IMG/VR virus record: IMGVR_UViG_3300047334_000085
Reading direction: 5' to 3' (one strand)
DNA length: 64,000 bases
Source: a virus
Shown here: positions 10,682 to 48,281 of the stretch, in pieces
Position numbering within the stretch: the stretch's first letter is position 1
Layout of the letters: every line of letters starts with the position of its first letter
Program-made: the position numbers and the translations under genes
The notes under the pieces: generated by a model
Databases searched by the model: none
Seen by the model: only the letters and a program-made list of their open reading frames with translations
Told to the model about the DNA's origin: nothing

Positions 10682-10688
10682 AAATCTC

Positions 10689-11685: not shown

Positions 11686-13043
11686 CGAACAGCGATCGCA
11701 TTGTCTGGCGGCCCACCGAACGCCAAGCCGAGTTTCTGGCCGCGCCCGAGGACGAGGTGCTTTACGGCGGCTCTGCTGGCGGCGGTAAGACCGATGCGCT
11801 GGTGATCGACGCGCTTGGTGGGCAGTGTCGCGCCGTCGAACAGCCCGAGTATCGAGCGTTGCTGCTCCGTCGGTCCTACCCCGAACTGAAGGAGGTGGTG
11901 GACCGCACGCAGGCGATCTATCCGGCGGCGTATCCAGGCGCCCGCTATGTCGAACCGGAATGGCGGTTTCCCTCCGGTGCGCGTCTCGAACTCGGCTACC
12001 TCGACCGCGACACCGACGTGATGCGGTATCAGTCCCGTCAGTTCCAGTGGATCGGCTGGGAAGAACTGGCGCAATGGGAAAGCGATTACGCCTACACCTA
12101 CATGATTTCTCGCCTGCGCCGGCCTGACCGGCTGGATATCCCGGTCTACATCCGCGCCACCTGCAACCCGGACGGTCCTGGCGCACGCTGGATTGCGAAG
12201 CGCTGGGGGATCAGCGCCGATGGCGCGTCCTGCCGCCGCACGATGCAGGTGAAGGGCAAGGAGTTCCGGCTGCGGTTCATCGCCGCTCGGCTGCACGATA
12301 ACCCGCATCTGACCGATACCGGCTATCGCGAGCGGCTCATGCTGCTGCCCGACCATCTGCGCAAGGCGCTGCTCGACGGGCGCTGGGACGAGCCGATCAT
12401 CGACGGCGCGATCTACAACGACGAACTCGTCAAGGCGCGCGAGCAAGGCCGCATCACCAGCGTGCCGTATGATCCGGTCGCGCGGGTGGATACGTGGTGG
12501 GATCTCGGCGTCGCCGACAGCACGGCGATCTGGTTCACCCAGGACGTCGGGCGCGAGTTGCGGGTGATCGATTACTACGAAGCGCAGGGCGAAGGCTTGC
12601 CGCACTATGCCGCCGTGCTGGACAAGCGCGGCTACCTCTACGGCCGCCACACAGCCCCGCACGACATTGAGGTGCGCGAACTGGGTTCCGGCCGCTCGCG
12701 GGTGGAAACCGCCGCCTCGCTCGGCATCCGCTTCGAGACCGCGCCCAACATCGGCGTCGACGACGGGATCCACGCAACCCGCATGCTGATGGCGCGGATG
12801 TGGTTCGACGAGCGGAAATGCGCCGCCGGGCTGGAGGCGCTGAAGCACTACCAGCGCGAGCGGAACAAGCGGCTGGCCGAGTGGAAGTCAACGCCGCTGC
12901 ACAACTGGGCCAGCCACGGTGCGGACGCGCTGCGCACCCTGGGCGTGGCGCACAAGGCGGCGCGTCCGGTCGTGCGGTCTGGGCGTGAGGTGCGCACGGT
13001 GCAGGCCAGCGGCGAAGCCTCGAACGCATGGTTAGGCGCATGA
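11682..13043 (+). CDS. terL: Terminase large subunit
   Basis: Walker A (LYGGSAGGGKTD), ...QWIGWEEL..., and nuclease-half motifs (VDTWWDLGVADSTAIW, HNWASHGADALR). The ATG at 11682 overlaps the terS TGA. Confidence 0.9.
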   Translation: MTNSDRIVWRPTERQAEFLAAPEDEVLYGGSAGGGKTDALVIDALGGQCRAVEQPEYRALLLRRSYPELKEVVDRTQAIYPAAYPGARYVEPEWRFPSGARLELGYLDRDTDVMRYQSRQFQWIGWEELAQWESDYAYTYMISRLRRPDRLDIPVYIRATCNPDGPGARWIAKRWGISADGASCRRTMQVKGKEFRLRFIAARLHDNPHLTDTGYRERLMLLPDHLRKALLDGRWDEPIIDGAIYNDELVKAREQGRITSVPYDPVARVDTWWDLGVADSTAIWFTQDVGRELRVIDYYEAQGEGLPHYAAVLDKRGYLYGRHTAPHDIEVRELGSGRSRVETAASLGIRFETAPNIGVDDGIHATRMLMARMWFDERKCAAGLEALKHYQRERNKRLAEWKSTPLHNWASHGADALRTLGVAHKAARPVVRSGREVRTVQASGEASNAWLGA

Positions 13044-22320: not shown

Positions 22321-22677
22321 ATGAGGCCGAAGCCGCTTACAGGCATATCGTTCAAACTGGCCGACCGGAACGGCACCTATCTCGGCGTGCTGATCGTGCC
22401 CGAATGGGTGGCGCGGCAACTGAACCCGCCGAATAGCGACCGCATCCATGACTACGTGACGGTGCGCATGCTGATCCGCGAAGTCCGGGCGTTTCCCACT
22501 GCTGACGATAACAAACGCGCAGAAATGGCGGGCTGTTTCACCATCTACCCGTCGATGGCGCTGGATGGCGCGATTGAGGTCAGCGGCATCAATATCGGCG
22601 CGCTCTCGTCGCAGACCGGCTTTGCCTTCCTGCCTGGCGCGGCCTATCTCGCCGACGTGCGACTGGCGCCGGGCTGA
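22321..22677 (+). CDS. Hypothetical protein immediately upstream of portal
   Basis: GGAGGGG lies before the ATG. TGATG overlap with the portal start. Confidence 0.55.
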   Translation: MRPKPLTGISFKLADRNGTYLGVLIVPEWVARQLNPPNSDRIHDYVTVRMLIREVRAFPTADDNKRAEMAGCFTIYPSMALDGAIEVSGINIGALSSQTGFAFLPGAAYLADVRLAPG

Positions 22678-25058
22678 TGCCGCAGGACACCACCCGGCCG
22701 AAAGACGACGGGCGCATCCGCATGCCGCCCACCGACAGCGCGATGAACAAGATCAGCCCGCCGTTCAAGATGGACGACAAGGGCACCATGCTGGGCGGTC
22801 CGCGTGGCGACAAGAAAAAGCAGCAGAAGCTGCTGGAACGGGTGCGCAAGCGGATGGACCGCGCCATCGCGGCCGAGTCCGACAACCGCAAAGCCGGGAT
22901 GGATGACCGCTCGTTTGTCGCCGGTAACCAGTGGCCGTCCGAAGTGGTGGCACAGCGCAACCTCGACAAGCGACCGTGCCTCACCTTCAACAAGTTCCCC
23001 ACCCTGATCAGCCAGATCACCAACGCGCAACGCCAGTCCAGGCCCTCGATCAACATCAGCCCGACCGGCGAGCGCGGCGATGCCGAGGTGGCGAAGATGT
23101 ACCGGGGCATGATCCGGTTCATTGAACGCGATTGCGGAGCCAATGCGCCAAACGGACCCTATGACACCGGGTTTGCCGATTCCGTCACGATGGGCTGGGG
23201 GTATTGGCGGGTGCTGACGGAATGGGAGGCGCCGGACAGCTTCAACCTCGTGCTCGTGGTCAAGCGCATCCGCAACCCGTTCACCGTTTATCTCGATCCG
23301 TCACACCAGGAGATCGACGGTTCTGACGCGAAATGGGGTTTCGTGTCGGAATTGCTGCCGCGCGAAGAATTCAAGGAGAAATGGCCGAAAGCCGACCAGA
23401 TGCCTTTCACCCAGGCCGGTCTGGGCGAGACGATGAAGCAGTGGATCACCACCGACGAAATCCGCATCGCCGAGTATTTCGAGATCGAATACCAGACCAG
23501 GACGCTGATCGAACTCAGCAACGGCCATACCGGCTGGGAAGACGAACTCGACGAGATCACCGATGGCTACATCAAGCGCGGCAAGCTGTGGGTGACGGAC
23601 GAGCGCGAGGCGCGGATCCCGCAGGTGATGTGGTACAAGGTCACCGCCAATGACGTGCTGATGGAACGGGAATGGCTGGGCAGCACCATCCCGATCGTCA
23701 AGGTGACCGGCCGGGAACTCGACATCGAGGGGCGGCCGAAGCTGAAAGGCATCGTGCGCGACGCCAAGGACGCGCAGCGCATGATCAATTACTGGGATAC
23801 CAGCAAGACCGAGATGGTCGCGCTGGCGCCGAAATCGCCCTACATCGGCGAGGAAGGCCAGTTCGAGGGCCACGAAGACGAGTGGAAGATGTCGAACATC
23901 CGTTCGACGCCCTATTTGTCCTACAAGGGCACCTCGGTGAACGGCACGCCCGCCCCGCCGCCGCAACGTGTCGCCTTTGCTGGCGTCCCGGCGGGCATCG
24001 TCGAGGCCAGCCAGTCCGCGCAGCAGCATCTGATGGGAATAACCGGCGTCCGGTTCGATAGCACGCTGGCCGAACGGACGATGGACGAAAGCGGCAAAGC
24101 GCTGCGGGAACTGCGCCAGTCCGGTGATATCGGCGCGTTTGACTTCATCGACAACCTCACCCAGTCGCTGCGACGTACTGGCGAGATCATGCTGGAACTG
24201 ATCCCGAAGATTTACAGCGAATCCCGCATCATCACGATCCTTCGCGAAGACGACAAAGAAGAGCAGGTCAAGATCGACCCCGCGCAGCCGAAGCCGATGG
24301 GCGAAATGCGCAAGCCCGACGGCAAGATGATGCGGGTGTTCAACCCGGTCATGGGCAAGTACGGCGTCACGGTCACGATCGGGCCGAACTTCGCCACCAA
24401 GCGGGTGGAAGCGGGCGAGAACATGATCGCCTTCGCCAAGGCGCTGCCGCAGACCGCCGCGCTGATCGCCGATCTGATCGCCAAGAACATGGACTGGCCG
24501 GGCGCGGAAGAGATCGCCACACGGCTGGCCAAGACCCTGCCGCCCAACCTGCTGGTGCCCGACCAGAAGGACCTCTCGCCGCAGGTGCAGGCGCTGCTGG
24601 CGTCGATGGACGGCCAGATCAAGCAGCTTACCCAGCAGCTACAGCAGGCGATGGCGGCGCTGACCGACAAGAACCAGGACCGGGCGCTGGCGGCCGACAA
24701 ATTCAACAAGGATTACGAGGCCAAGCTGCTGAAGATCGTGGCCGACGTCGAGACCAAGATGGCGGCGACGGAAGAGAAGGCGAAGGCCAATTTCAACACC
24801 CATATCGGCGCGCAAATCCGCGAAATGGGTGCGGATACCGCCGCGCTGATGCAGGCTTTGGAAAACCCGCCAGCCGCCGCCGAGGGTGGCGCCCCAGCGG
24901 CGGCGACGGGCGGCGACGGTTCGAACCCGGCTTCCGCTGACGAAGCCACGCCACCGCCGCAAGCCCTCTCACATCTGCGGGAAGGCCGCAACACCACGTT
25001 CGCGAACGGGCAGACCTGGACCCTCTCGAACGGCCAGCCGGTGCGGGTGAAGACATGA
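22677..25058 (+). CDS. Portal protein, P22 gp1-like
   Basis: AGNQWPSEVVAQRNLDKRPCLTFNKF..., IRIAEYFEIEYQ and IPIVKVTGRELDIEGRPKLKGIVRDAKDAQRMINYW parallel P22 gp1 segments ([45 protein letters not shown]). Long coiled-coil C-terminal barrel. Confidence 0.88.
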   Translation: MPQDTTRPKDDGRIRMPPTDSAMNKISPPFKMDDKGTMLGGPRGDKKKQQKLLERVRKRMDRAIAAESDNRKAGMDDRSFVAGNQWPSEVVAQRNLDKRPCLTFNKFPTLISQITNAQRQSRPSINISPTGERGDAEVAKMYRGMIRFIERDCGANAPNGPYDTGFADSVTMGWGYWRVLTEWEAPDSFNLVLVVKRIRNPFTVYLDPSHQEIDGSDAKWGFVSELLPREEFKEKWPKADQMPFTQAGLGETMKQWITTDEIRIAEYFEIEYQTRTLIELSNGHTGWEDELDEITDGYIKRGKLWVTDEREARIPQVMWYKVTANDVLMEREWLGSTIPIVKVTGRELDIEGRPKLKGIVRDAKDAQRMINYWDTSKTEMVALAPKSPYIGEEGQFEGHEDEWKMSNIRSTPYLSYKGTSVNGTPAPPPQRVAFAGVPAGIVEASQSAQQHLMGITGVRFDSTLAERTMDESGKALRELRQSGDIGAFDFIDNLTQSLRRTGEIMLELIPKIYSESRIITILREDDKEEQVKIDPAQPKPMGEMRKPDGKMMRVFNPVMGKYGVTVTIGPNFATKRVEAGENMIAFAKALPQTAALIADLIAKNMDWPGAEEIATRLAKTLPPNLLVPDQKDLSPQVQALLASMDGQIKQLTQQLQQAMAALTDKNQDRALAADKFNKDYEAKLLKIVADVETKMAATEEKAKANFNTHIGAQIREMGADTAALMQALENPPAAAEGGAPAAATGGDGSNPASADEATPPPQALSHLREGRNTTFANGQTWTLSNGQPVRVKT

Positions 25059-25678
25059 GCGGTGCGATGAACCCGTCCGATCCGTGGCGGCCGGTGCATC
25101 ATGCGGATGCCTGGACCCCGAAACTGGTGTCCGACAACACCAAGCCCGCCAAGGCCAAGCCGAAACCGGCCGATACGGCGCCTGAGACGGGGCCACAGGC
25201 CAAGCAGGACGGCGAACCAAAGCCTGGGCGCACCTCGGCCGCGATCACCGTCAGCACCCCTCTGGATGTCACCATGGCGCTGCCCGACGGGCTGGCGGAC
25301 GACATCATCACCTTGGTCGAGGCGCAGCGCGATCTTGCCGATCAGGTGGCAACGCTGGTCGACAAGCTGAACAAGTGGACCGCCGATGTGCAGAGCGCGA
25401 TGCAGGCGGCGCAGCAGCCGGTCATCGAGACCATGCAATCGACCTTGCAGCAGGTGATGGCCGGGCAGCAGGCGCTGGCCGCACAGGTCAAGCAACTCGC
25501 CGATGCGCAACCGGCGCTGACCTCGGGCATCGCCTCGTGGTCGCACAGCATCGAGGCCGCCATCCGGGCGCCACGGCGCGTGGCACTTGAGCGCGGCCAG
25601 GACGGTCTGGCGACCGGGGCCGTTTCCAGCGTCGTTTCCACCCCCACCCAACCACCCGAAGCAAGGACAAGCCCGTGA
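25055..25678 (+). CDS. Gln/Ala-rich coiled-coil protein
   Basis: ATGA coupling to portal. Confidence 0.6.
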   Translation: MSGAMNPSDPWRPVHHADAWTPKLVSDNTKPAKAKPKPADTAPETGPQAKQDGEPKPGRTSAAITVSTPLDVTMALPDGLADDIITLVEAQRDLADQVATLVDKLNKWTADVQSAMQAAQQPVIETMQSTLQQVMAGQQALAAQVKQLADAQPALTSGIASWSHSIEAAIRAPRRVALERGQDGLATGAVSSVVSTPTQPPEARTSP

Positions 25679-26769
25679 GCGTTTTTGCCACCGAGATCAA
25701 CATCTACGGCTCCGCCAACATGCCTGAAACCGACGGCGTGACCGTCGGCGGCGCGGTGGACCTGACCAAGATCATCACCTTCAGCGACATGGCGGCGACC
25801 GGCACGATCGATTTCCTGTCCTCGTCCTCCTCTGACACCGCCACCAAGATCCAGGTGGCCGGGCGCGACGCCTCGGGCATCTTGCAAACCCCGGCCGCCG
25901 TCACCCTGAACGGGCAGGTCAAGATCAACGGCAGCCAGTCGTTTCAGCGCCTGCTGTTCGGCGCGATCTCGGGTGCCAGTGCCAACGGCCCGCTGGCCAA
26001 CCCCGGCGGGACCGCAGCGGTGGGCGATGTGGCGGCGATGGCGCACACCCTGACCATCAGCGGCCACACTTGCCAGGCTGGCAGTGCGAACCATTCCGGC
26101 GTGACGCCTCCGACCATCAAGCTGCAATCGGGCGACGGGGCCAGCATCACGCTGGGCATGATCATCCACCTGACCGGCGGCACCGGTTCGGGCCAGATCA
26201 GACAGGCGTGCAGCACCTCTGGCACCGGCTCGGGGCAGTATGGCACCGACATCATCGCGGTGAACCGCGACTGGGGCACCGTGCCGGACGCGACCACGAC
26301 CTATGAGGTGGCGACGGGCATGCTGTTCCCGATCCTGCCCAACCCGGTCACAGCGGTCATCCGGCCGTTTTCCACCGTGGCGTCGGACGTGGTGGGCGGT
26401 TCGACCCGGCTCTACTACGAAAAGGCGTTCGTCCTGAACACGGACGGCACTACCGCGCTGACCTCGCAGACCCTGATCAAGCAGATTGACCCGTCGGGGC
26501 TGTATTCGGGTGGCGGTGCGTTCGATATCGCCCCGTGCACGGCGCTAAATGACACCAACACCACCACCAACCGCCAGACCGCGCCCAGCACCGGCGTTGG
26601 CTCATATTCGTCCGGTGCGGCGCCGCAGACCGTAACGCCGCCGGCGCAGACCGCCGCGTCGAACTCTGCCGCGCAGGCGCAAGGCTTCTGGATGCGGGAA
26701 ACCCTGCCGCCGGCGCTGGCGCCGACCAACACCTTCTTCGACCTGCGGAGTTTCGGCACCTCGACCTGA
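25675..26769 (+). CDS. Virion structural protein, unknown role (Thr/Gly/Ser-rich beta-type)
   Basis: GTGA coupling. The assignment rests on composition and position. Confidence 0.55.
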   Translation: MSVFATEINIYGSANMPETDGVTVGGAVDLTKIITFSDMAATGTIDFLSSSSSDTATKIQVAGRDASGILQTPAAVTLNGQVKINGSQSFQRLLFGAISGASANGPLANPGGTAAVGDVAAMAHTLTISGHTCQAGSANHSGVTPPTIKLQSGDGASITLGMIIHLTGGTGSGQIRQACSTSGTGSGQYGTDIIAVNRDWGTVPDATTTYEVATGMLFPILPNPVTAVIRPFSTVASDVVGGSTRLYYEKAFVLNTDGTTALTSQTLIKQIDPSGLYSGGGAFDIAPCTALNDTNTTTNRQTAPSTGVGSYSSGAAPQTVTPPAQTAASNSAAQAQGFWMRETLPPALAPTNTFFDLRSFGTST

Positions 26770-26798: not shown

Positions 26799-28985
26799 TT
26801 GGCCCTGACCTATGTTGACCGGGCGCGGATGAGCACCGCGACCACCGGTACCGGTACCATCACGCTAGGTTCGGCGGCGACGGCGTATCAGACCTTTGCC
26901 GCAGCGGGTGTGAGCAACGGCAACACGGTCGAGTATCTGATCGAGGACGGCAACGCCTGGGAGATCGGCGTCGGCACGTATAACTCGACCGGTCCGACGC
27001 TGGCGCGGAGCCTGCGGTCTTCGTCCACCGGCTCGCTGATCAGCCTGTCGGGGAACGGCATCGTGACGGTGGTGTTCACCGCGCTGACGCAGACCGAGAC
27101 CTTGGCCTCCCCTCCGGCGATCGGCGGCACGGCGGCGAACAGCGGCGCGTTCACCACGCTCGCAACGTCGGGCCAGTACACGGCCAGCGCCAACATCGTG
27201 ATGAACGGGACCAACCCGCAGCTTTACATCGGCTCCACCGGCGCCAACCAATCGATCCTCAATATCGGCGCCGCCGCCGGGCAATACCGGATCATCTATT
27301 TCAACAGCGGGTTCCTGGCTCGCTGGTCGATTGCCACCAGCGGCGAGGCCGAAAGCGGATCGAACGCGGGCAGCAATCTAGCCATCGACTCGTATTCCGA
27401 TGCGGGCGGCTTTCTCGCTGCTGTGCTTTCGATCAACCGCGCCACCGGACTTGTGACCATCCCGGATCTCGGTTCGGCCTCGGCCGCCATCACCGGCGGC
27501 ACGATCGACGGCACGATCATCGGCGGCAGCACGCCGGCGGCGGCGACGTTCAACTTCATCACCGTATCCTCGATCTCGGGCAGCGCGGGCACCATCGACG
27601 GCGTGGTGATCGGCGGGACGACGCCGGCGGCCGGTTCGTTCACCACCGTCACCGCCACATCGACGGTCAGCGGTGTCGGTCTGATCGCCACCACCAGCGG
27701 GATATCGATCGGCACGAATACGCAGACCGGCGCTTCGCTGAGTTTCAACACCGCAGCGGCCAACTACCGGCTTATGAATTTTTACTCAGGCGGGGTATCG
27801 CGCTGGCAAGTCGGTGTCGATAACTCGACCGAGTCCGGATCGAACGCGGGCGCCAATTTCTTCTTCAATTCGAACACCGACGCGGGCGGCTTTCTGGCGC
27901 AACCGCTGACGATCAACCGCGCCAGCGGTCTGGTGAGCCTGTCGAAAGGGGCGGCGATCACCGGCGGATCGATCAACAACGCCACGGTCGGCGCCACCAC
28001 GCCATCGACCGGCGCGTTCACCACCCTGACCGCCAACAACACCGTCACCCTGGCGCCGGTCACCGCCAATGTCGGGCGCAACATCTTCCACAACCCCCTG
28101 TTCAACATCGCACAGCGAGGCACCGGACCGTTTACCACGGCGAGCGTCTACACCGCCGATCGGTGGATACTGTCGCTGGCCAATGACACCGACAGCATCA
28201 CCGTCGCGTCGCTGACCGACACCGACCGGTCCGGGATCGGCAATGAGTATGCCGAAAACGCCTTGCAATGCGTGGTGGCAGGGGTGAGCACCGGCCTGAC
28301 GCAGATCCTGCAATACACCGAGGACGTGCGCCGGACCGCCAACAAGACCGTTGTGCTAAGTTTCTGGGCCAAAGGTTCGGTGGCGCTGAACGTCGGCGGC
28401 TACATGAGCCAGAATTTCGGCAGCGGCGGTTCACCGTCGGCGTCCGTGTCGTTCGGCACGCAAAGTGTGGCGATCACGACAAGCTGGGCGCGCTACAGCA
28501 TGACGTTCACCGTGCCCTCGACCTCGGGCAAGACGTTGGGAACCACGGCCAACACGAGCAGTCTTCTAGTCGCCCTGGGTCTTTCGGCGGGTGCCGCAGC
28601 CAGTCCGACCTTGGGTGTCGGGGTGCAGTCCGGCACCTTCACCTTCTGGGGCATGCAACTCGAAGTCGGCCCTGTCGCGTCGCCGCTTGAGACCAAGGAA
28701 ATCGGCCGCGATCTGGTGCTTTGCCAGCGTTTCTATCAGGTCTTTTCGACGTTGCAGGTCTACACCAGCTATGGCCTCGCTGCGGGCGCGGCGATCCAGG
28801 ATTTCATCTTCCCCGTGACGATGCGCGTGGCCCCGACAGGCACGTTAAGCGGCGCCAGCTACGGCAACGCTTCGGCCGCGACGGTGAACGCAACAACCGT
28901 CAGCGAAGCCCGCATCCAGATCAGCATCACCGGAGTCGGCGCAGCGTTTGGCTCGTTTACCGCAGCCTTCAGCGCCGATTTCTGA
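26799..28985 (+). CDS. Tail fibre protein
   Basis: N-terminus has [15 protein letters not shown]...[16 protein letters not shown], typical of alphaproteobacterial phage fibres. It carries the repeated motif (I/T)GG(S/T)TPAAG(A/S)FT(T/F). TTG start. Confidence 0.7.
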
Positions 28986-28998: not shown

Positions 28999-31782
28999 AT
29001 GTACGGCTCATCCGCCTATTCCAGCACCGCCTACGCCGCCGGGCGCACACAGTTCCTGGTGCAGATTGACGGCTTTGCGCCCGCCGAGTGGCTGGAAAGC
29101 CTGCGCCGTGACATTGCCGTTCCCGACGAGGCGCTGGTTGGCGTTCGCACCGACGCCAACAGTCCCGACTCGATCTCCGGTTCGCCGCAAACCACCGGGC
29201 TGATATCGGCGGAAAGCCTCGCCAGTGTGCGCGCCGATGCCAATGTGCCGCTGGAAAACCTTGAAGGGCTGCGCACCGACGGCAACCTGCCGGTGGAAAA
29301 TTTCACCGGTTCGCGCACCGACGGCAATGTGCCCAGCGAACGGTCCGGCAGCCCGCGCGGCGACACCGCCATCCCGGACGAATGGTTCGGCAGTGCGCGC
29401 GGCGACAGCCAGATCCCCAACGAGCGGTTGGAAGGCGTCATCACCGACGCCAATGGGCCGGTCGAAGACCTCAGCGGCGTCGCCAGGGACAGCCAGATAC
29501 CGGCCGAACGCAGTGCCGCGACCGCGAATGTGGGCCTGACGCCGGCAGAATCATCGGCCAACGAAGTCACCACCGGCGCCATTCCGGTGGAAAACCTGGG
29601 CGGCATTGTCCGCGACCGCACTCTGCCAGACGAAAGCCTCTCGGGTGTCATCACCACCGAGATCAGCCCGACAGAATGGTTGAGCACCGTGCTGCCGGTG
29701 CAAATCGACGCTTCGATCCCGATCGAATGGCTGGGCGTGTTCCCGACCGTGATGATCGACCAGTCGATGCCGACCGAATGGACGGCTTCGGTTGAAACCG
29801 ACGCCAATGTGCCGCTGCAAACCTCGGTTGATCTGGTTCGCACCGACGCCACGCCACCGACCGAAACGGTCGCATCGCTGCAAACCGACGCGGCCCCGCG
29901 CGACGAAACGCTCGCCAACGTCAGCATAGACGACAAGATCATCAACCGTTGGCATGGGCAGCCCACCACCACCAGCGCCATTCCGGCGGAAAACGCATCG
30001 GCACTGGAATCGGACGCGCTGACGCCGAACGCCGTGCTTGGATCTCCAACCGCCGATGCCGCGATCGCAGCGGAAACGACGGCCAATGTCAGCATAGACG
30101 ACAAGATCATCAACCGTTGGCACGGCCAGCCCGTCACGGATGCGGCGGTGCCGGCGGAGACGTCCTCGGCGGTGCACACCGAGACGCCGCCGCTCAACGA
30201 GTGGCTGGGCGCGCTGCCGGGCGATACAGCAATCCCAGCGGAAACGACGGCCAACGTCAGCATCGACGAAAAGATTATCAACCGCTGGCACGGCCAGCCG
30301 GTCACCACAACGGCGATCCCGGCGGAGTGGTTGATCTCCACCGCCACCACCGGTGCGATACCGACAGAACGGCTGGTTGGCGTCGCCACCGATCAAGCCC
30401 CGACGGCAGAATCGCAGGCCAACGAGCAGACCCACAACGCCAGCCCGGCGGAGACGACCGCCACGGTAGCCGCCGATGGCACGGCGCCGGTTGAGGCTGC
30501 GGCCGGTGTTATCGGCGACGAAGCCCCGCCGACGGAATGGACAAGTTCGGTCCTGGCGGTGCAGGTCGATACCAACATTCCGCTGGAATGGCTTGGCTCG
30601 ACGCTCATGGTCCAGACCGACGCCTCGGCGCCGACGGAATGGACCGGCACGGTTGAAACCGACGCATCGGCGCCGACCGAGGCCATGGTTTCGGTTAGTC
30701 GCGACGGCAAAAGCCCGGCCGAAAGCCTGCAATCGGCGCAAACCGAGGGCACAAGCCCGGTCGAATCGCTGGTTGGCGTGCAGAGCGACGCCAGCGCGCC
30801 GGACGAAACCACAGGCACGGTCAGCACCGACACAACGAGCCCGGTTGACGCGCTGCAATGGGTGGCGGCGACGGGTGCGACGCCGGTGGAATCGCTGGCC
30901 GGGGTGGCGACCGACAGCGTCACGGCAAATGAAGACCTGATCTCGGTCGATACCGACAGCGCAAGCCCGGCCGAGGCGATGCCATCCGTGCAAGCCGTCG
31001 GCGCCAGCCCGGTCGAGTCGTTGGCCGGTGTGCAGCGTGACACGAGCGAACCAACGGAAGGGCTTGGATCAGTCCAAACCTACGCTTCAAGTCCAATCGA
31101 GTGGTCCAGCTTGGTCGCTGGCGATGCGGCGATACCGGCAGAAGCACAGGCCGCCGCCTCCACCGATCGGGGCGTGCCGGTTGAAAGCCTGACCGGCGTG
31201 ATGGTCACGCAGAACGATCCAAACGAGTGGACGAGTTCTGTATCTGCGGTGCTGGTCGATCAATCGATCCCGGCCGAATGGACGGCATCGGTTGTCAATG
31301 ACGGCCTATCGGTTGACGAAACCGCTTCTGCGGTTGTCACCGACGCCGCAATCCCGGACGAGCGCGGCGAAATAGAGGTCGTGTTCGGCGGAGCGAATGA
31401 CCAGTGCATTGAGCCGCCGCCCGGTTATCGGCGGCTGCTGGACACCTCGAACGTTGACCTGGCAGCGCAAGAAGCGGCGCGGCTGCGCCAGTCGCGCATT
31501 GAAATCGGTCTGTTGCCGCAAGACGACGTGCCCGACCTGCCGGCACCGATCGCCGATATCCCGCCCGAACAGGCGATCATCTTCGTTGTTCCGCCGGTCA
31601 TCGAGGTTGTCCCGTTCGCGGCGGATGCGATTGCGGCCGAGATCGCAGCGACGTTGCTGGATGCCATTCGCGCCGACGATGCGGCAACGATCGCGGCTGA
31701 GGCGGAGGCGGATGCGCTGAAAATGATGCGCCTGATCGCCGATGACGCTGATGTTTTGATGCTGCTTTCGGCGCTGATTTGA
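28999..31782 (+). CDS. 927-aa repeat protein with about 50 copies of a 14-aa unit (consensus V.TDa.iP.E.l.g), probable fibre/appendage
   Basis: The repeat was read directly from the translation. N-terminus is MYGSSAYSSTAYAAG. Confidence 0.75.
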   Translation: MYGSSAYSSTAYAAGRTQFLVQIDGFAPAEWLESLRRDIAVPDEALVGVRTDANSPDSISGSPQTTGLISAESLASVRADANVPLENLEGLRTDGNLPVENFTGSRTDGNVPSERSGSPRGDTAIPDEWFGSARGDSQIPNERLEGVITDANGPVEDLSGVARDSQIPAERSAATANVGLTPAESSANEVTTGAIPVENLGGIVRDRTLPDESLSGVITTEISPTEWLSTVLPVQIDASIPIEWLGVFPTVMIDQSMPTEWTASVETDANVPLQTSVDLVRTDATPPTETVASLQTDAAPRDETLANVSIDDKIINRWHGQPTTTSAIPAENASALESDALTPNAVLGSPTADAAIAAETTANVSIDDKIINRWHGQPVTDAAVPAETSSAVHTETPPLNEWLGALPGDTAIPAETTANVSIDEKIINRWHGQPVTTTAIPAEWLISTATTGAIPTERLVGVATDQAPTAESQANEQTHNASPAETTATVAADGTAPVEAAAGVIGDEAPPTEWTSSVLAVQVDTNIPLEWLGSTLMVQTDASAPTEWTGTVETDASAPTEAMVSVSRDGKSPAESLQSAQTEGTSPVESLVGVQSDASAPDETTGTVSTDTTSPVDALQWVAATGATPVESLAGVATDSVTANEDLISVDTDSASPAEAMPSVQAVGASPVESLAGVQRDTSEPTEGLGSVQTYASSPIEWSSLVAGDAAIPAEAQAAASTDRGVPVESLTGVMVTQNDPNEWTSSVSAVLVDQSIPAEWTASVVNDGLSVDETASAVVTDAAIPDERGEIEVVFGGANDQCIEPPPGYRRLLDTSNVDLAAQEAARLRQSRIEIGLLPQDDVPDLPAPIADIPPEQAIIFVVPPVIEVVPFAADAIAAEIAATLLDAIRADDAATIAAEAEADALKMMRLIADDADVLMLLSALI
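29914..30417 (+). repeat. Three tandem 168-nt higher-order repeats (4 x 14 codons), each containing ANVSID(D/E)KIINRWHGQP
   Basis: Near-identical about 50-nt cores start at 29914, 30082 and 30250, exactly 168 nt apart. Confidence 0.8.
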
Positions 31783-31924
31783 CATCGCGGTGTCAGCGTG
31801 TGTTGGTAACTGATTGACGACACACGATCATATCAAATAAAAACCGAACGACGTGCCTGACCAACCGGCTGGTGACGTGCCGGGTGACCATCTCCGCCTG
31901 CCCTAGACGACCCCCAGGAGACGT

Positions 31925-33052
31925 TTGCCCGTGGCATCGATTGCCGTTTCGCGCCCACCTGACATCCTCATTCGCACAGCCCCGCCGCTGTCGGCGACGT
32001 CCGACTCCCCGTTGGCCGAGGTGGCAAAGCCACCGGTATCCGCATCCAACCATGCCGACGACAACGATGCCGGCATCCCGGCGGAAATGACGTTGCAGGA
32101 GAAGGCCGCAGCGGATGCGGCGCGATCGGTGGAAGCCGGTGCGGACCCAGAAACGACTGAGAAGCCTGCAAAACCGGCGAAAGCCGACAAGACCGCCAAG
32201 GCCGAACCAACTGAGCCGGAAGTCAAAGTTGAAGCCGCCGGCGAGGACGATGAAGTTGACGTTTCGGATCTTCCCCCAGGCACCCCGACATGGGCGGTGC
32301 GGGAGATATCGAAGGCACGCAAGGTCTCGCGCACCCAGGTTGCCGAAGCCGCCGCTGCCATCAAAGCCGCGACGGACGCTGCGGCGGCAGCGCGGGCGGA
32401 ACTCGCGGCGTTGCGCGCGGCGGCGGAAAAGACCCCCGAACAAGCCAAGCCCCTCGAACCGGTTGTCGATGCCCGCCCGACCCGCGATGCGTTCGATGAC
32501 CCCGATTCGTATGACACCGCGCTGACCGAATGGGCCGAACGCGAGGGCGTGCGCAAGGTTGCCGCCAAGCAGGAAGCCGAAGCGCAGGCCAAGGCGAAGG
32601 CCGACGCCGAAGCGGAAGCGGCGCGCCAAGCTGCGATCTGGACCGCGCGGCGTACGGCGGCGATCGAGAAATACCCCGATTACGAGAAGGTTGCCGAGGG
32701 CGATCATGTCGTCTCGATGCCGATGGCGTCTGCGATGATGGGCCTCGAAAACGGCACTGACGTTGCGATGTATCTGGGCCAGAACCCCGAAGAGAGTGCC
32801 AAGATTGCCGCGATGCCGAGCCCGGTGTTGCAGATGGTCGAGGTTTGCAAGCTGGCGGCACAGCTATCGGCGCCGAAGCCGCGCGCGACGCGCGCCAAGC
32901 CGATCGAGCCGATCGAGCGCAACACAGCACCCGCCGATACGTCCGAACGCGAGCCGTCGATGGATGAATGGGCGGCCAAGCGTAACCCCGAGATCATGAA
33001 CGGCCGCAAACCGTTCTTCAACGTCACTGAGCGCGTTGCGGCGCGGCACTGA
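31925..33052 (+). CDS. Putative scaffolding protein
   Basis: Ala/Glu/Lys-rich helical protein just upstream of the coat gene. AGGAG sits 5 nt before TTG 31925. Contains YPDYEKV...NPEESAKIAAM. Confidence 0.55.
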   Translation: MPVASIAVSRPPDILIRTAPPLSATSDSPLAEVAKPPVSASNHADDNDAGIPAEMTLQEKAAADAARSVEAGADPETTEKPAKPAKADKTAKAEPTEPEVKVEAAGEDDEVDVSDLPPGTPTWAVREISKARKVSRTQVAEAAAAIKAATDAAAAARAELAALRAAAEKTPEQAKPLEPVVDARPTRDAFDDPDSYDTALTEWAEREGVRKVAAKQEAEAQAKAKADAEAEAARQAAIWTARRTAAIEKYPDYEKVAEGDHVVSMPMASAMMGLENGTDVAMYLGQNPEESAKIAAMPSPVLQMVEVCKLAAQLSAPKPRATRAKPIEPIERNTAPADTSEREPSMDEWAAKRNPEIMNGRKPFFNVTERVAARH

Positions 33053-33598: not shown

Positions 33599-34783
33599 GT
33601 GGCCTCAAACGCCCTACTCACGCCGGCCCTGATCACCAAGGAAACACTGGTGATCCTGGAGAACAACCTTGTCGCAGCCGGCAAGGTCAACCGTCAGTTC
33701 GAAAACCAGTTCGTCAAGATCGGCACCACGCTGACCGTGCGCAAGCCGAACCGGTTCAAGATCACCCTTGGCCCGGCTTTGCAGATCCAGGACATCAGCG
33801 AGCCGTCAACCTCGATCACCGTCTCCACCCAGGCGCATGTGGACTTCCAGTTCAGCAGCCAGGAACTGACGCTGACCATCGAGGAATACTCGGAGCGGTA
33901 TTGCAAGCCCGCCGCCGCCACCATCGCCAACCAGATCGATATCTCGGTGCTGCAAAACTTCACCGCGATCTACAGCGAGGTTGGCACGCCTGGCACCCTG
34001 CCGAACTCGTTTGCCTCGCTCGCCGCCGTCGGCCAGCGGCTTGACGAGCAGGCCGCACCGCAGGACGGCCGCGTGCTGATCCTCAACCCCGCCGCCTACT
34101 GGTCGATCGCCAACGGGCTGTCCAACCTGTTCACCCGTTCGGTTGCCGAACCGGCACTGAAAGGCTTCCTGGCCGCGATCGCCAACTTCGAAATCTACGA
34201 AGACCAGAACATCCAAAGCCAGACCGTCGGCAACTATGCCGGCACCCCGACCGTCAACGGCGCTGGGCAGACCGGGGCATCGCTGGTCACGCAGGGCTGG
34301 TCGAACAGCATCGCCACCCTGCTGAACGTGGGCGACGTGTTCACCATCGCGGGGGTGTTCGCGATCAACCCGCAAAGTCGCCAGTCCACCGGCAGCTTGA
34401 TGAACTTTGTCGTCACCACCACCGCTTCGTCTTCCGGCGGCGGCGCATCGACCCTGGCCATCAGCCCCGCGATCACCACCACCGGCGCCTATCAGAACGT
34501 TTCGAACTCCCCGGCGAACTCGGCTGCGATAACCGTTCTTGGAACGGCATCAACCACCTATTTCCAGAACATCGGGTTTACCCGCGATGCGTTCGGGTTA
34601 GTGTGTGTTCCCATGGAGTTACCGGGCGGCGTGGACTTCGCTGCACGTGAGATGTATCGCGCAATCAGCATGCGTATCGTTCGGGCTTTCGACATATTTA
34701 ACGACGTTACTCCGTGCCGTATCGATGTGCTGTACGGCACCAGCACGTTTTATCCAGAACTCGCCGCCCGGCTGACCAACTAA
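33599..34783 (+). CDS. Major capsid protein, P22 gp5 coat family
   Basis: LITKETLVILENNLVAAGKVNRQFENQFVKIGTTLTVRKPNRF is the characteristic N-arm of the P22 coat family. AGGAG-N7-GTG. A strong terminator follows. Confidence 0.88.
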   Translation: MASNALLTPALITKETLVILENNLVAAGKVNRQFENQFVKIGTTLTVRKPNRFKITLGPALQIQDISEPSTSITVSTQAHVDFQFSSQELTLTIEEYSERYCKPAAATIANQIDISVLQNFTAIYSEVGTPGTLPNSFASLAAVGQRLDEQAAPQDGRVLILNPAAYWSIANGLSNLFTRSVAEPALKGFLAAIANFEIYEDQNIQSQTVGNYAGTPTVNGAGQTGASLVTQGWSNSIATLLNVGDVFTIAGVFAINPQSRQSTGSLMNFVVTTTASSSGGGASTLAISPAITTTGAYQNVSNSPANSAAITVLGTASTTYFQNIGFTRDAFGLVCVPMELPGGVDFAAREMYRAISMRIVRAFDIFNDVTPCRIDVLYGTSTFYPELAARLTN

Positions 34784-46176: not shown

Positions 46177-48281
46177 TGGGCCTCGATCCGACCCTCGTTA
46201 ACGGCTTCCGGCCGACCCCGATCGGGCCGGACATCGGCACCATGATGCAGAACGCGCAAGCGATGATGCAGGTCGATGCCGCGAAGCAGCAGATGGGCCG
46301 GCAGAACGCGCTGCGCGGCATCCTCTCGCAGCCGGGCGCGATCGACGACAAGGGCAACCCGACCCCGGATGTGATGAAACAGGTCTACGGCATCGATCCG
46401 CAGGCCGGGATGGCGTTGCAGCAGAACATGCTGGTCAACCAGCAGCGCCAGCTCCAGACCGACATGCTGAAGTCCAAGGCGTTCAGCGACAAAATGGACC
46501 TCATGAGCGACGCCTACGCGCCGATCTACGAGACGTATCAGGATGAGGTGAAGGCCGGAGCGACGCCGGAGCAAGCCGGGGCGCATGCGCAGGAGGGCAT
46601 TACCGCCGCATACAACAGGCTGAAAGAGGGCGGAGCGCTGACGCCGCAGGAAGTGCAAAACCTGCCGACGCAATGGGACCCGACCAAAATCGGGCAGTTT
46701 GTCCAGGGATCGAAGAACTTTCAGGAGTGGCGGTCCAATCAGGCGAAGGCGGCGAAGGATCAGCGCACCGAGGCGCGCGAGGAAGAGTCGCTGAAGGAGC
46801 GCGAGCGGCACGACCGGGCGGAAGAAGGCCGGACCGATTTTGGCCCCGTGGTGCAAGGCATCGTCACGCAGGACGGCAAGCCGGTTCGCGTCATGGCGCA
46901 GCAGAACAGGCAGACCGGCGAATGGGTGTCAGCCGACGGCGACCGCAGACCGCTCGACAAGACGTTTCAAATCCAGAAGCCGCCGGCTGCGGGTTCGGTT
47001 GCGGAAACCCGTGAGCGGTTTCGTGACGACCTCGACGCTGACCCGGAGTGGAAGAACCGCTCCAACATCGACAAAGACATGGAGGTGGAAAGCCGCATCA
47101 AGATCGCCCAGGGCACCAAGAGCGACCCTGCGGCGTGGGATTCGCTGGCCGAAGAAATCGCTTCGTATCGCACCGCGCCGCTGTCCGGCTTTGCCAAGGT
47201 CCGCCCTGGCGGGCCGGAGGTGATGGCACGGGTGATGAAGCTGAACCCGGACTATGAGGAAGGGCGCTTCCAGGAAGTCAACCGCGCCATGATCGAGTTT
47301 GGCCCCGGCAAGAAGGGCGACACGATCCGGTCTTTGAACACCGCTGTGCAGCATCTCGATGTGCTGGATAAGGCTGCTGACGCGCTGAACAATGGCAATG
47401 TCGCGCTGTTCAATCGTCTCGCGAACACGATTGCGATTGAGTTTGGGGTGCCGGCGCCGACCAATTTCAACGGCTTGAAACAGATTGTCGGCACCGAACT
47501 GCAAAAGGCCATCGGGGGCGGCATCGGCGCCGAATCCGACCGCGCACAATTCGGCAAGGCCCTTGATGCGTCCAATTCGCGTGAAGCGCTGGGCGCTGTG
47601 ATCAACAGTTTCAAGCTGCTGATGGGCGGACAGGCGAGGACGCTGAAGCAGCAATACGAGGATTCGACCAACTTCACATCGGGGCCGTTTGCGTTCGAAA
47701 AGAAACTGCTGCCCGAAACCATCCAGCAACTCGGGCTGTCTTCGGGCGAAAGCGGAAAGGCGGGCGCGGGCGAAACAGCAAAGCCGCCGCCAGAAGTTAT
47801 GACCAGCGCCGGCGGAAGATGGCCGGAAGGCACGCAGATCCCGCCCGATGCGGTGAAAAATCTACAGCAACACCCGGAAACCGCCGATGCGTTCAGCAGG
47901 AATTTCGGCGTCGGGGCGACGAAGCAAATCCTTGGCGACAAGATGCCAGGCGAGAAGAAGGCCGACACAACACCGGCCAAGAAGGACGAAGGAGCCAAGC
48001 CGCAGGGCGCGGTCGAGGTGCCCGCAGCGCGTGCCAAGGACCCCGACGGCACGACCTATAACGGCGGCAAATTCGTCAAGCGCGGCGGCTACCTCGTGCC
48101 GCTGACCGCGCAGGATAATGCCGCCGCCGCCAAGCCCGGTGCGACGCAGCCAAAGACCGCCATTCCGCCACGTCCGGCGCGTGTGCCGCGCGGCAGCGTC
48201 TACAGCCCAAGCCGTCAGATGTGGCGTGATTCCACCGGACGGCTCTACGACGCCGACGGCAATGCGTTCCCGGCGCCATAA
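46176..48281 (+). CDS. Internal-virion/ejection-type protein (701 aa)
   Basis: TGATG coupling on both sides. The assignment rests on position, like P22 gp20. Confidence 0.65.
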   Translation: MGLDPTLVNGFRPTPIGPDIGTMMQNAQAMMQVDAAKQQMGRQNALRGILSQPGAIDDKGNPTPDVMKQVYGIDPQAGMALQQNMLVNQQRQLQTDMLKSKAFSDKMDLMSDAYAPIYETYQDEVKAGATPEQAGAHAQEGITAAYNRLKEGGALTPQEVQNLPTQWDPTKIGQFVQGSKNFQEWRSNQAKAAKDQRTEAREEESLKERERHDRAEEGRTDFGPVVQGIVTQDGKPVRVMAQQNRQTGEWVSADGDRRPLDKTFQIQKPPAAGSVAETRERFRDDLDADPEWKNRSNIDKDMEVESRIKIAQGTKSDPAAWDSLAEEIASYRTAPLSGFAKVRPGGPEVMARVMKLNPDYEEGRFQEVNRAMIEFGPGKKGDTIRSLNTAVQHLDVLDKAADALNNGNVALFNRLANTIAIEFGVPAPTNFNGLKQIVGTELQKAIGGGIGAESDRAQFGKALDASNSREALGAVINSFKLLMGGQARTLKQQYEDSTNFTSGPFAFEKKLLPETIQQLGLSSGESGKAGAGETAKPPPEVMTSAGGRWPEGTQIPPDAVKNLQQHPETADAFSRNFGVGATKQILGDKMPGEKKADTTPAKKDEGAKPQGAVEVPAARAKDPDGTTYNGGKFVKRGGYLVPLTAQDNAAAAKPGATQPKTAIPPRPARVPRGSVYSPSRQMWRDSTGRLYDADGNAFPAP

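Follow-up and report, generated by a model that had tools for sequence, protein, structure and literature searches.

The shafts of the adenovirus fibre, reovirus sigma1 and PRD1 P5 are triple beta-spirals, in which short pseudo-repeats carry alternating hydrophobic residues and a conserved Pro/Gly turn. The number of repeats sets the length of such a fibre and varies between relatives. Narrow single-chain beta-solenoids devote one short coil to each repeat, as in the insect antifreeze proteins (coils of 12 or 15 residues), the ice-nucleation protein (16 residues) and the hexapeptide enzymes with a left-handed beta-helix. In these solenoids a ladder of identical residues runs along the rod, and the length of the rod is proportional to the copy number. 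In phage tail fibres, collagen-like and other variable repeats form arrays between conserved attachment and distal parts, and the number of collagen-like repeats differs among closely related phages. A 14-aa C-terminal repeat (LLAPYNLRSTVQAE) is present in about 20 tandem units in a large tail protein of Aeromonas phage BUCT552.

We analyzed a 64,000-nucleotide stretch of viral DNA (IMG/VR record IMGVR_UViG_3300047334_000085, hereafter the window) that encodes a 927-aa protein with a long array of 14-residue repeats. Like the triple beta-spiral shafts, the array consists of short pseudo-repeats, of a length close to theirs, with alternating hydrophobic residues and a conserved Pro/Gly turn. 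However, its period is 14 residues, whereas those shafts are homotrimers with a period of 15-16 residues and no invariant D...P.E, and we found no sequence or fold match between the window protein and the shafts (PDB; Foldseek against PDB and BFVD). The strand pattern predicted by AF2, together with top Foldseek rows that do not reach significance, points to the narrow single-chain beta-solenoids, but the described solenoids have other motifs (TCT, AGYGST, [LIV]Gxxxx), none of them with 14 residues, no link to phages and TM-scores of about 0.1. Two specific candidates were rejected. The left-handed beta-helix hexapeptide repeat (PF00132; 18 residues per coil) gives no Pfam Hexapep match and 14 is not a multiple of 6, and the GGxGxDxUx motif of the RTX/beta-roll Ca-binding repeat is absent from the translation, which has no Pfam match to it either. 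The collagen-like tail-fibre repeats show the same evolutionary behaviour as the window array, but they follow a G-X-Y pattern that the window repeat lacks, and the chemistry of the two repeats is unrelated. Likewise, the BUCT552 repeat was rejected as a homolog: its match, the one hit in a tblastn search with the array of P0006, a relative of the window protein, lies in an antisense frame, its motif is different, and the family profile does not match it.

A tandem array of 14-residue repeats

The features of the locus are listed in Table 1. GC content by codon position in the repeat ORF is 0.66/0.53/0.76, in keeping with the + frame, and the identical 927-aa protein is a called gene on 88.5-kb contigs. 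Scanning the surroundings of the gene for promoters and terminators returned no signal stronger than expected from shuffled sequences. All of the repeat examples quoted in the initial annotation were found in the translation of 28999..31782, and its central claim, that the protein contains about 50 tandem 14-aa repeats, is borne out. Identity at a lag of 14 residues is 0.26, compared with 0.081 ± 0.010 in shuffled sequences (z = 18.4), and a local HMM of the unit finds 40-49 units between aa 21 and aa 792, depending on the score cut-off. The spacing between the starts of successive units is 14 residues in 32 cases, 17 in 5 cases and 28 in 6 cases. Besides the five 17-residue variants, a form that had also been proposed, the array contains three variant units in which I and R replace P and E. 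Each 17-residue variant consists of a 3-4 residue insert (VLP, VFPT, VLA, TLM or VSA) after an EW-containing unit. The repeat HMM matches no other gene of the window, and no paralogue came up when the C-terminal domain was compared by BLAST with every ORF of the window.

Table 1. Features of the repeat-protein gene and of the genes around it
Feature	Position	Strand	Details
P22-like portal gene	22677..25058	+	PF16510 1.1e-161; upstream boundary of the cassette
207-aa helical protein	25055..25678	+	First cassette gene after the portal
364-aa cassette protein	25675..26769	+	No assigned function; 81-89% identity in related podophages
Fibre-like 728-aa protein	26799..28985	+	phrog_4492 tail fiber 3.8e-50; weak CBM_4_9 match
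Repeat-protein ORF	28999..31782	+	Complete, ATG start, 927 aa
Conserved N-terminal motif MYGSSAYSSTAYAAGRTQFL	28999..29058	+	aa 1-20; kept in orthologs on L102, L006, L005
Repeat array	29059..31374	+	aa 21-792; about 46-55 tandem 14-aa units
Three higher-order 168-nt units (4 x 14 codons)	29905..30408	+	aa 303-470
17-aa core ANVSIDDKIINRWHGQP, first copy	29914..29964	+	Other copies at 30082-30132 and 30250-30300
Conserved C-terminal domain	31375..31779	+	aa 793-927; 135 aa, helical; alignments A4, A5; 55-61% identity
Scaffolding protein gene	31925..33052	+	phrog_8865 and PF11651; downstream boundary of the cassette
Coat gene	33599-34783		After the scaffold gene

Among the 41 full units, the most conserved positions are E10 (40/41) and P8 (37/41), followed by D4 and S/G14 (29/41 each), V1 (25/41), and T3 and L12 (21/41 each). 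Position 7 is I, V, L or A in about half of the window units, and W11 is present in 11 of 41 (27%), compared with 64% across the repeat family described below. We read the window units as a relaxed version of the repeat, with far lower hydrophobicity than is typical of the family. The array, in which A, T, S, D and E are abundant, could be partly disordered.

Taken further, such disorder would make the array a degenerate acidic spacer that lost its hydrophobic core in the window lineage. Instead of a rod, it would be a flexible tether or bristle with a negative charge. The protein is indeed strongly acidic, with a pI of 4.05 and 142 D+E residues versus 37 K+R, and its composition (A 14.7%, T 10.1%, S 9.3%, P 7.8%, D+E 15.3%) and the low frequency of W11 fit a disordered spacer. 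So do the AF2 scores, which fall below a pLDDT of 50 for aa 610-800 despite an alignment and to 33 without one, and the tolerance of orthologs for anything from 0 to 55 units. However, the conservation of D4, P8 and E10, with V1 and L12 kept in more than half of the units, is more constraint than a disordered linker needs. In addition, a 17-aa core within the array is under purifying selection, and the AF2 model has regular beta structure in the region of greatest alignment depth. We consider a largely disordered spacer improbable.

A small core protein with an array of variable length

Four orthologs share the conserved N- and C-termini of the 927-aa protein. With the window protein included, the lengths are 158, 480, 567, 579 and 927 aa, and the 480-, 567- and 579-aa proteins have both termini of the window protein. 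A recognizable version of the N-terminal motif is found in the repeat-less protein L087/P0153 (MFGSTPFGAQPYAAS) and in the array protein P0033. Two sequence motifs, FGGAND and PPPGYRRLLDT, lie in the C-terminal domain, along with two helices and a Pro-rich linker; one helix spans aa 821-835, and the other, of 55 residues, spans aa 872-926 and ends in DDADVLMLLSALI. Alignments A4 and A5 of this core family contain 51 invariant columns, and the window protein has the signature of the family, namely the FGGA-PPPGYRR-LDT motif, the REIGL helix and a C-terminal helix ending in D(D/E)xDVLxLL(S/A)AL. P0153-P0158 match the core-family profile A5 at E values from 1.7e-63 to 8.9e-5, and the C-terminal domain has six profile hits, each of them a protein of 142-189 aa that lacks the array. 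The gene for the core protein comes immediately after a fibre gene, in phages that have a P22-like portal, both in the window and on L005, L006, L087, L088 and L102.

Copy number, which the initial annotation proposed to compare among relatives, varies greatly: there are no units in the 158-aa form, about 23, 29 and 31 in the intermediate ones and up to about 50 in the window protein. Between the 158-aa ortholog and its counterpart on L006, the C-terminal domain and the intergenic region are about 98% identical (judged by eye on the alignment), and the similarity ends exactly at the array border. At the level of sequence comparison, these data show that the N- and C-terminal parts make up a protein of roughly 150 aa that lacks the array in most relatives and always follows a fibre gene, and that the array has been inserted into the linker between the two parts, with a length that varies across the orthologs from 0 to about 55 units. 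PHROG and PDB profile searches with the core family returned no relative of known function. No prophage copy of the C-terminal domain turned up in a scan of GTDB genomes, and the corresponding IMG/VR search returned only two contigs that were already known.

Higher-order repeats and stability of the array

The initial annotation reported three 168-nt units with a near-identical core and attributed them to recent unequal recombination. We recovered the three units, which start at 29905, 30073 and 30241 with a period of exactly 168 nt and whose cores start at 29914, 30082 and 30250. The core, ANVSID(D/E)KIINRWHGQP, is itself a variant repeat unit. Between each pair of copies, the 17 codons of the core differ by 3-6 synonymous and 0-1 non-synonymous changes, while the 36 codons outside it differ by 22-26 non-synonymous changes. 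Judged by this pattern of substitution, the 17-aa core is under purifying selection and the 168-nt units represent an old duplication with selection acting on the core. A second higher-order repeat of 252 nt (6 units) is found at 30679/30931, with 70% identity. Recent recombination does not fit these data, since the 168-nt copies are only 58-69% identical overall and have diverged at synonymous sites within the conserved core.

The further suggestion that the array is still expanding and contracting would, in its fullest form, make the gene a contingency locus, in which slipped-strand events or unequal recombination rapidly change array length within a population and produce a phase-variable host range. 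The spread of ortholog lengths and an exact 35-nt repeat at 29920/30088, in frame and 168 nt apart, are what such a locus might leave behind. However, this 35-nt stretch is the longest exact internal repeat in the ORF, the 14-aa units are only about 60-75% identical at the nucleotide level, and TRF detects no more than two short 42-nt arrays (76-77% matches). The divergence of the higher-order copies argues in the same direction, and three 88.5-kb assemblies of the phage, from different ENA analyses, carry the ORF without a single nucleotide difference. Ongoing expansion and contraction is not supported, and we regard a contingency locus as very improbable. Of the earlier interpretation as a whole, the absence of a named family, the position of the gene and the variation in copy number stand, while recent recombination and ongoing change in array length do not.

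Gene neighbourhood

The genes are arranged in the order portal, 207-aa protein, 364-aa protein, fibre-like 728-aa protein, repeat ORF, scaffold and coat. The unusual placement noted in the initial annotation, between portal and scaffold genes and beside a fibre gene, is supported by matches to PF16510, phrog_4492, phrog_8865 and PF11651. A 77%-identical copy of the 364-aa gene lies in the tail-fibre region of a Mu-like prophage, which encodes a protein with LamG and an array three genes downstream of that copy. The presence of this gene in both settings points to a mobile fibre cassette between portal and scaffold. Prophage copies of the 364-aa gene are found in Stellaceae MAGs, which makes an alphaproteobacterium the probable host of the phage. 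Relatives retain only the N-terminal 110-240 aa of the fibre-like protein; its distal part is mosaic. Identity among relatives is 88-91% for the coat protein, 82% for the portal and 55-61% for the C-terminal domain of the repeat protein, suggesting that the fibre cassette evolves fast in comparison with coat and portal.

The position of the gene also bears on a different possibility, namely that the protein is not part of the virion and that its core of about 150 aa is an assembly factor, either chaperone-like and dedicated to the upstream fibre or an accessory of head assembly, with the array as a tolerated passenger. The fibre chaperones lambda Tfa, Mu U' and T4 gp38 are encoded directly downstream of their fibre genes, and the core always occupies this classic position. 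It is also small and helical in the AF2 model, and array-less forms are the majority. On the other hand, neither the window protein nor P0153-P0158 has a Pfam or PHROG match to a Tfa/gp38-type or other chaperone family, and membership in such a family was rejected. On L087, another small ORF already stands between the core and the fibre gene; this ORF matches only PHROG families of unknown function. Moreover, arrays of 320-770 aa with conserved unit positions have been kept in four lineages, which would be costly for a passenger, and elsewhere the repeat family occurs in proteins of phage structural modules. An assembly factor therefore seems quite unlikely to us. A scaffold-like protein, an internal or ejection protein and a DNA mimic were rejected as well; gene adjacency and acidity are all that speaks for them, and the context of the repeat family points to fibres.

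The repeat in other phages

The initial annotation assigned the repeat to no named family, and Pfam, PHROG and PDB-sequence searches of the window protein were likewise empty. The sole Pfam line, YajR_YAM at E 0.007, is below the cut-off and was dismissed as noise. An exhaustive search of 1.84e9 representatives with a profile of 3 units, however, returned 362 clusters at E<=1e-3, of which 147 reach E<=1e-10, and with the window protein as the sole query P0001-P0004 were retrieved at E values from 1.5e-34 to 8.6e-4. The consensus is [VIL]-x-x-D-x-x-[IV]-P-x-E-W-[LT]-x-[GA] or, in a second form, [VIL]-x-x-D-x-x-[IV]-P-x-E-(W)-[LT]-x-[GS], and across the family D is conserved in 92%, P in 88%, E in 87% and W in 64%, and a spacing of 14 is dominant (261 of 528 intervals counted). 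The window protein fits this family in its period and in D4, P8 and E10.

In the usual layout of family members, the N-terminal 250-500 aa are globular and often include Laminin_G_3, and the array comes next, before a short tail. P0006, for example, has a canonical array at aa 436-877. A ConA-like lectin domain is frequent at the N-terminus; Laminin_G_3 was found in 17 of 72 members and the Gp77 fibre-tail adaptor in 1 of 72. The window protein departs from this layout: its array begins at aa 21, and a helical domain of 135 aa comes after it. Since this is the opposite of the arrangement in most members, the family may not be a valid guide to its function. All members whose surroundings were examined lie in phage structural modules: downstream of baseplate-type genes on a myovirus-type contig, beside the portal gene in a prophage, in podovirus tail modules with an SU10-type adaptor and Gp77, and in the tail-fibre region of the Mu-like prophage described above. 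These contexts show that the repeat forms the C-terminal half of proteins from podovirus tail modules and from tail-fibre or baseplate regions of myovirus-type contigs and prophages. By the same evidence, it defines a rare, undescribed family whose members are phage proteins from structural modules.

The one library family that overlaps the repeat is phrog_6079 ("tail protein"), a cluster of whole proteins for which neither a repeat nor a structure has been described and no function tested. It aligns to the array in 6 of 10 relatives scanned singly (five at E<=3e-7, one at 0.002) and matches 12 of 72 family members in a batch scan; on the arrays of P0005, P0006, P0007, P0009 and P0012, the alignment covers profile positions of about 41-210 at E values down to 7.6e-16. 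The window protein itself matches no PHROG, phrog_6079 included, at E<=0.01. Neither tblastn of the window protein nor megablast of the 20-kb region found a match among 50,697 phage records, and tblastn of P0005 matched Streptomyces phage Yara in the lectin domain only. A BLAST look-up of the family member with the Gp77 domain did not find it, and a search of the literature for the 14-residue repeat, the GP4 fibre-tail adaptor and the strings IPVEW/IPIEW/IPAEW found no description.

Predicted fold and proposed function

A monomer of the window protein was modelled with AF2. When alignment A8 was supplied, the model showed periodic 3-strand units in aa 476-605 (pLDDT 58-68), with strands in register between successive units of one chain, and a 55-residue C-terminal helix at a pLDDT of 86-96. 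Overall confidence is low (mean pLDDT 55.6), and the single-sequence model was unusable. Foldseek against PDB and BFVD gave no significant match; the top PDB rows are all left-handed beta-helix enzymes (E>=0.06, TM about 0.1). Three short strands per unit at a pLDDT of about 60, together with these non-significant rows, agree weakly with the beta-solenoid suggested in the initial annotation.

We think it somewhat probable that the ORF encodes a component of a virion appendage belonging to the tail-fibre cassette, composed of the 20-aa N-terminal motif, the array of about 50 units and the 135-aa C-terminal domain, and that the array acts as a rod or spacer of variable length. Each unit would form one narrow, three-sided beta coil with V1, I7 and L12 pointing inward and D4, P8 and G14 at the corners. 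The array would then be a stiff rod that gains about 4.8 A per unit, reaching roughly 24 nm here and 11-15 nm in the relatives, and would be missing from the 158-aa form. The C-terminal helix may oligomerize or may anchor the protein to the fibre or virion, while the rod would set how far the N-terminal tip, or the acidic surface of the rod itself, projects. Its length would change through occasional duplication or deletion of units and mosaic recombination at the array borders, rather than as a fast switch.

Alternatively, the units of three chains could intertwine in a trimeric beta-fibre, as a triple beta-spiral or beta-helix like the shafts of adenovirus and reovirus or T4 gp5/gp12, with the C-terminal helix as a trimerizing coiled coil and each unit adding 2-3 times as much length to the rod as in a solenoid. 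Trimers are the usual form of phage fibres. The bulky I7, I/V9 and W11 of the family units would be hard to bury in a 14-residue single-chain coil, the C-terminal helix is confidently predicted, and the monomer confidence of only about 60 in the array is frequent for obligate trimers. However, the period of 14 differs from that of known triple beta-spirals, no fibre shaft was matched by sequence or fold in PDB or BFVD, and AF2, in a monomer prediction that could miss a trimeric fold, places the strands in register within a single chain. A trimeric fibre is thus unlikely in our estimate, although less so than a disordered spacer.

Returning to the rod or spacer of a virion appendage, a broader proposal is possible but doubtful. 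The 14-aa unit may be a new building block of fibres, either a narrow beta-solenoid or a novel trimeric beta-fibre, with an Asp/Glu ladder that might need divalent cations. It would serve as a plug-in molecular ruler in unrelated carriers (lectin-headed fibres, fibre-tail adaptors and the fibre-associated protein of about 150 aa), move with the fibre cassette between podoviruses and myoviruses, and tune the reach of the adhesin tip.

Significance

The host range of a phage is decided by its fibres and appendages, whose sequence space is to a large extent unannotated. The work defines a rare repeat family that comprises about 360 clusters in a set of 1.84 billion representatives and lacks both a Pfam entry and a solved structure. 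It also shows that a fibre cassette sits inside the head-gene block of a P22-like module and is common to Mu-like prophages. The orthologs form a natural length series in one protein (0, about 23, 29, 31 and 50 units), which offers a ready test of spacer length versus adsorption. If the 14-residue coil or a new trimeric shaft proves true, it would be a new structural motif that is useful for the annotation of fibres in metagenomes, and the fold would allow rods of defined length to be engineered.

Repeat array of the window protein

The product of the repeat ORF (the window protein) is periodic over nearly its entire length, with P-x-[EDQ] anchors at 14-residue steps and a few steps of 17 residues. 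A unit HMM places 40-49 units between residues 21 and 792, the number varying with the cut-off, and the lag-14 identity is 0.26, compared with 0.081 ± 0.010 for shuffled sequences (z = 18.4), confirming the tandem 14-aa repeats described in the initial annotation. GC content by codon position (0.66/0.53/0.76) agrees with the plus-strand frame, and the ORF termini are kept in orthologs. The unit consensus is V-q-T-D-g-a-i-P-a-E-w-L-a-S/G; among the 41 full units, P is found in 37, E in 40, and D in 29. The 17-residue variants noted previously occur at five places, each after an E-W unit, with extra residues VLP, VFPT, VLA, TLM, and VSA. The three exact 168-nt higher-order units are likewise present. 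Their 17-aa core, ANVSID(D/E)KIINRWHGQP, contains a variant unit, V-S-I-D-D-K-I-I-N-R-W-H-G-Q, in which I and R replace the usual P and E. The initial annotation is confirmed as an observation, and its interpretation is supported in part.

Features of the window discussed in the text
Feature	Coordinates	Strand	Basis or remark
PAPS-reductase-like gene	1256-2218	+	PF01507, phrog_424
Large terminase gene	11502-13043	+	phrog_979/phrog_2
Portal gene, P22-like	22677-25058	+	PF16510, 1e-161
Repeat ORF	28999-31782	+	ATG start, 927 aa
168-nt higher-order units (three)	starts 29905, 30073, 30241; cores 29914, 30082, 30250	+	internal repeat comparison
Weaker higher-order repeat, 252 nt	30679/30931	+	internal repeat comparison
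Intergenic region, 142 nt	31783-31924		3' of repeat gene
Scaffold gene	31925-33052	+	P22-like head gene
Coat gene	33599-34783	+	P22-like head gene
4685-aa ORF	48281-62338	+	Pfam ResIII (aa 2541-2765), Helicase_C (aa 3058-3130)

Age and stability of the repeat units

The higher-order units had been attributed to recent unequal recombination, a proposal that their divergence does not bear out. Pairwise nucleotide identity among these units (56 codons each) is 58-69%; any two copies of the 17-codon core are separated by 3-6 synonymous and 0-1 non-synonymous changes, against 22-26 non-synonymous changes in the other 36 codons. This pattern shows that the duplication is old and that the core is held by purifying selection. 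Ordinary units are ~60-75% identical at the nucleotide level, and TRF detects just two short 42-nt arrays. No exact internal repeat exceeds 35 nt (29920/30088), the corresponding length in other window genes being 14-16 nt. A k-mer-based contig (L098) breaks at the first 17-aa core, as would be expected from the 35-nt repeat if the assembler k-mer were below 35.

Three 88.5-kb assemblies of the phage genome with differing start points have 0 mismatches across the repeat ORF. The window is identical to ENA ERZ12293621 scaffold_239_c1, an 88.5-kb genome, and the exact window protein is found in 28 collection blocks, equal to the number for the adjoining 364-aa protein. Neither the three assemblies nor the internal repeat divergence gives any sign of rapid length variation within this population. 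Array length therefore varies between lineages, probably through duplication or deletion together with recombination at the array borders. The suggestion that the array expands and contracts is borne out between lineages (0 to 50-55 units) but finds no support within the population. The nucleotide-level divergence of the units and the identity of the ORF across assemblies also argue against a fast contingency locus, which we regard as very improbable.

The array as an insertion into a ~150-aa protein

Two IMG/VR contigs (L005 and L006), whose portals are 82% identical to that of the window, and a JGI contig with an 89%-identical 364-aa gene (L102) have the same gene order as the window and encode repeat proteins of 480, 579, and 567 aa at the same position. 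These proteins and the window protein have two conserved ends (55-61% identity, 51 invariant columns in their alignment), an N-terminal motif, MYG(S/G)(S/T)(A/G)YS...Y, and a C-domain of ~125-135 aa with FGGA(N/T)D, PPPGYRR(L/M)LDT, REIGLL, a Pro-rich stretch, and the ending ...DDADVLMLLSALI. A 158-aa ortholog on a metagenome contig (L087) has both ends without the array. The DNA of L087 and L006 is near-identical (~98%, a by-eye estimate on the alignment) over the C-domain and the downstream intergenic region, and the similarity ends precisely at the array/C-domain junction, a mosaic breakpoint at the array border. A C-domain profile found only six matches in 5.8 billion proteins, all of 142-189 aa and none with an array. 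One of the six is encoded on contig L088, where the gene order is portal, 158 aa, 622-aa fibre, and core protein. An array-less protein of ~150 aa (the core protein), encoded 3' of a fibre gene, is therefore the ancestral and common state, and the array was inserted into the ~10-residue linker between the N-motif and 'FGGA'. Across orthologs the array has 0, ~23, 29, 31, or 50-55 units; relative to L102, its closest relative, the window protein has an extra 360 aa mid-array, including the higher-order repeat. That the protein is a fibre-assembly factor carrying the array as a passenger seems unlikely to us.

L006 and L087 retain part of the intergenic region 3' of the repeat gene (TTGACGACACACGAT...). 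By eye, this region contains a GTGTGT/ACACAC inverted repeat; a promoter/terminator scan reported nothing in it.

An unnamed repeat family

As first supposed, the repeat falls in no named family: searches of Pfam, PHROG, and PDB sequences gave no match for the window protein. When 5.8 billion proteins were searched by word index, only four relatives emerged (P0001-P0004), each with the period-14 unit and with a consensus, D..IP.EW, stronger than that of the window protein. A three-unit profile built from blocks of the window protein and of these relatives was searched exhaustively against 1.84 billion cluster representatives; it matched 362 proteins at E ≤ 1e-3, of which 147 reached E ≤ 1e-10 and 25 reached E ≤ 1e-30. 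The family consensus (299 units) is [VIL] (39/20/15%), x, x, D (92%), x, x, [IVAL], P (88%), [IVA], E (87%), W (64%), [LT], [AG], [GATS], with a spacing mostly of 14 and minor spacings of 15-17. The usual architecture is a globular N-terminal region of 250-500 aa, the array, and a short tail. A scan of 72 members detected Laminin_G_3 (a ConA-like lectin domain) in 17 and the Gp77 fibre-tail adaptor domain in one; phrog_6079 'tail protein' was matched by 12 members and a 'virion structural protein' PHROG by eight. The uncharacterised phrog_6079 is the only library entry that touches the repeat, its match covering the array itself in members examined individually; the window protein lies below its threshold. 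The largest array among the 150 best profile matches is that of the window protein (at least 40 units), followed by P0005 (33).

Every context examined is a phage structural module. One member lies 3' of baseplate-type genes on a myovirus-type contig and another adjoins the portal gene of a prophage, and in each of four podoviruses (P22-type portal, SU10-type adaptor, Gp77) the array protein comes after the adaptor and a ~340-aa gene. On contig L004, the D..IP.EW repeat is present in two adjacent genes (6190-9561 and 9561-10982) of a podovirus tail module that includes an SU10-type adaptor; they are P0003 and a second gene truncated by the contig end.

Aeromonas phage BUCT552 (Casjensviridae; L091 8831-13261, MW978786) was rejected as a relative, its tblastn match being spurious and in an antisense frame. 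Its large 'putative tail protein' (QVW27843) ends in ~20 tandem 14-aa units of a different repeat, LLAPYNLRSTVQAE.

Genome context and the fibre cassette

Four genes lie between portal and scaffold, encoding a 207-aa helical protein, the 364-aa protein, a 728-aa fibre-like protein (phrog_4492 'tail fiber', 3.8e-50; weak CBM_4_9), and the repeat protein. Window GC content is 63.7%. Cultured phages gave no DNA match and no close relative, the best coat match being 42% identical. Among related podophages, identity is 88-91% for the coat, 81-89% for the 364-aa protein, 82% for the portal, and 53-67% for the scaffold; of the fibre, only the N-terminal 110-240 aa are kept, the remainder being mosaic (374, 728, 1084, and 1251 aa in total). 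Homologs of the 364-aa protein number more than 788. A 77%-identical copy in a Mu-like prophage ends the baseplate/tail-fibre region, after Baseplate_J and Mu gp48, and three genes 3' of it a 470-aa Laminin_G_3 protein carries the window protein's repeat at its C-terminus (profile E 1e-11). The tail-fibre region that carries both genes (L103/L104 8320-12452) shows cassette exchange between myovirus and podovirus backgrounds. The four genes are therefore best read as a horizontally exchanged host-recognition cassette rather than as genes of the head. Alphaproteobacterial hosts are hinted at by homologs of the 364-aa gene, some of which occur on Stellaceae MAG contigs of 0.4-1.1 Mb.

The genome is large for its P22-like head type. 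The large terminase gene lies ~9.6 kb 5' of the portal gene with ~25 small ORFs between them, unlike P22, where the two are adjacent. The 4685-aa ORF ends the structural and ejection-protein block; so large a helicase-domain protein is unusual for a phage with a P22-like head module. In L102, a LAGLIDADG_3 match splits the domain of a 1149-aa P22-type portal (4705-8154), suggesting an intein or homing-endonuclease insertion.

Predicted structure and possible role

Single-sequence AF2 of the window protein gave a pLDDT of 33. A second run on aa 476-927, with an alignment of homologous arrays and core-protein homologs, gave a mean pLDDT of 55.6. Residues 476-605, the first ~nine units of this target (pLDDT 58-68), are modeled as strictly periodic, with three short strands per 14 residues at positions 14-3, 6, and 10-11. 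Since strands this short could only pair with neighboring units, each 14-aa unit would form one three-sided coil if AF2 is right. Corners would lie at D4-G5, P8, and x13-G14, with V1, I7, and L12 inward and ladders of D4 and E10 along the surface; at 4.8 Å per coil, the array would be ~24 nm long. Foldseek of the model against PDB and BFVD found nothing significant (best E ~0.06, TM ~0.1); every one of the top PDB rows, although non-significant, is a left-handed beta-helix enzyme, which fits a solenoid-like model. A trimeric beta-fibre in place of a single-chain solenoid is a possibility to which we give less weight; with triple beta-spiral geometry, the array would be two to three times longer. 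Residues 610-800 have pLDDT below 50, and this, together with the relaxed consensus of the window array, would suit a largely disordered acidic tether, which we consider doubtful. Helices at aa 821-835 and 872-926 (55 residues, terminal) have pLDDT 77-96.

With modest confidence, we favor the window protein as a fibre-cassette component. Its long C-terminal helix would oligomerize or anchor it, and the inserted array of 14-aa coils would form a rod of lineage-specific length that may set the conserved N-terminal tip and an acidic surface at a distance from the anchor. Functionally, such an array resembles other repeat shafts, namely the triple beta-spirals of adenovirus and reovirus fibres and collagen-like phage fibres; in structure, should the AF2 model hold, it would resemble the narrow beta-solenoids of antifreeze and ice-nucleation proteins. 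The array belongs to none of these groups, having a period of 14, a different motif, and no sequence or fold match. On this reading, the repeat is a case of a known phenomenon, the variable-length repeat shafts of phage appendages, and the family itself is undescribed, rare, and found in phage structural modules, with an unusual carrier here within a mobile fibre cassette.
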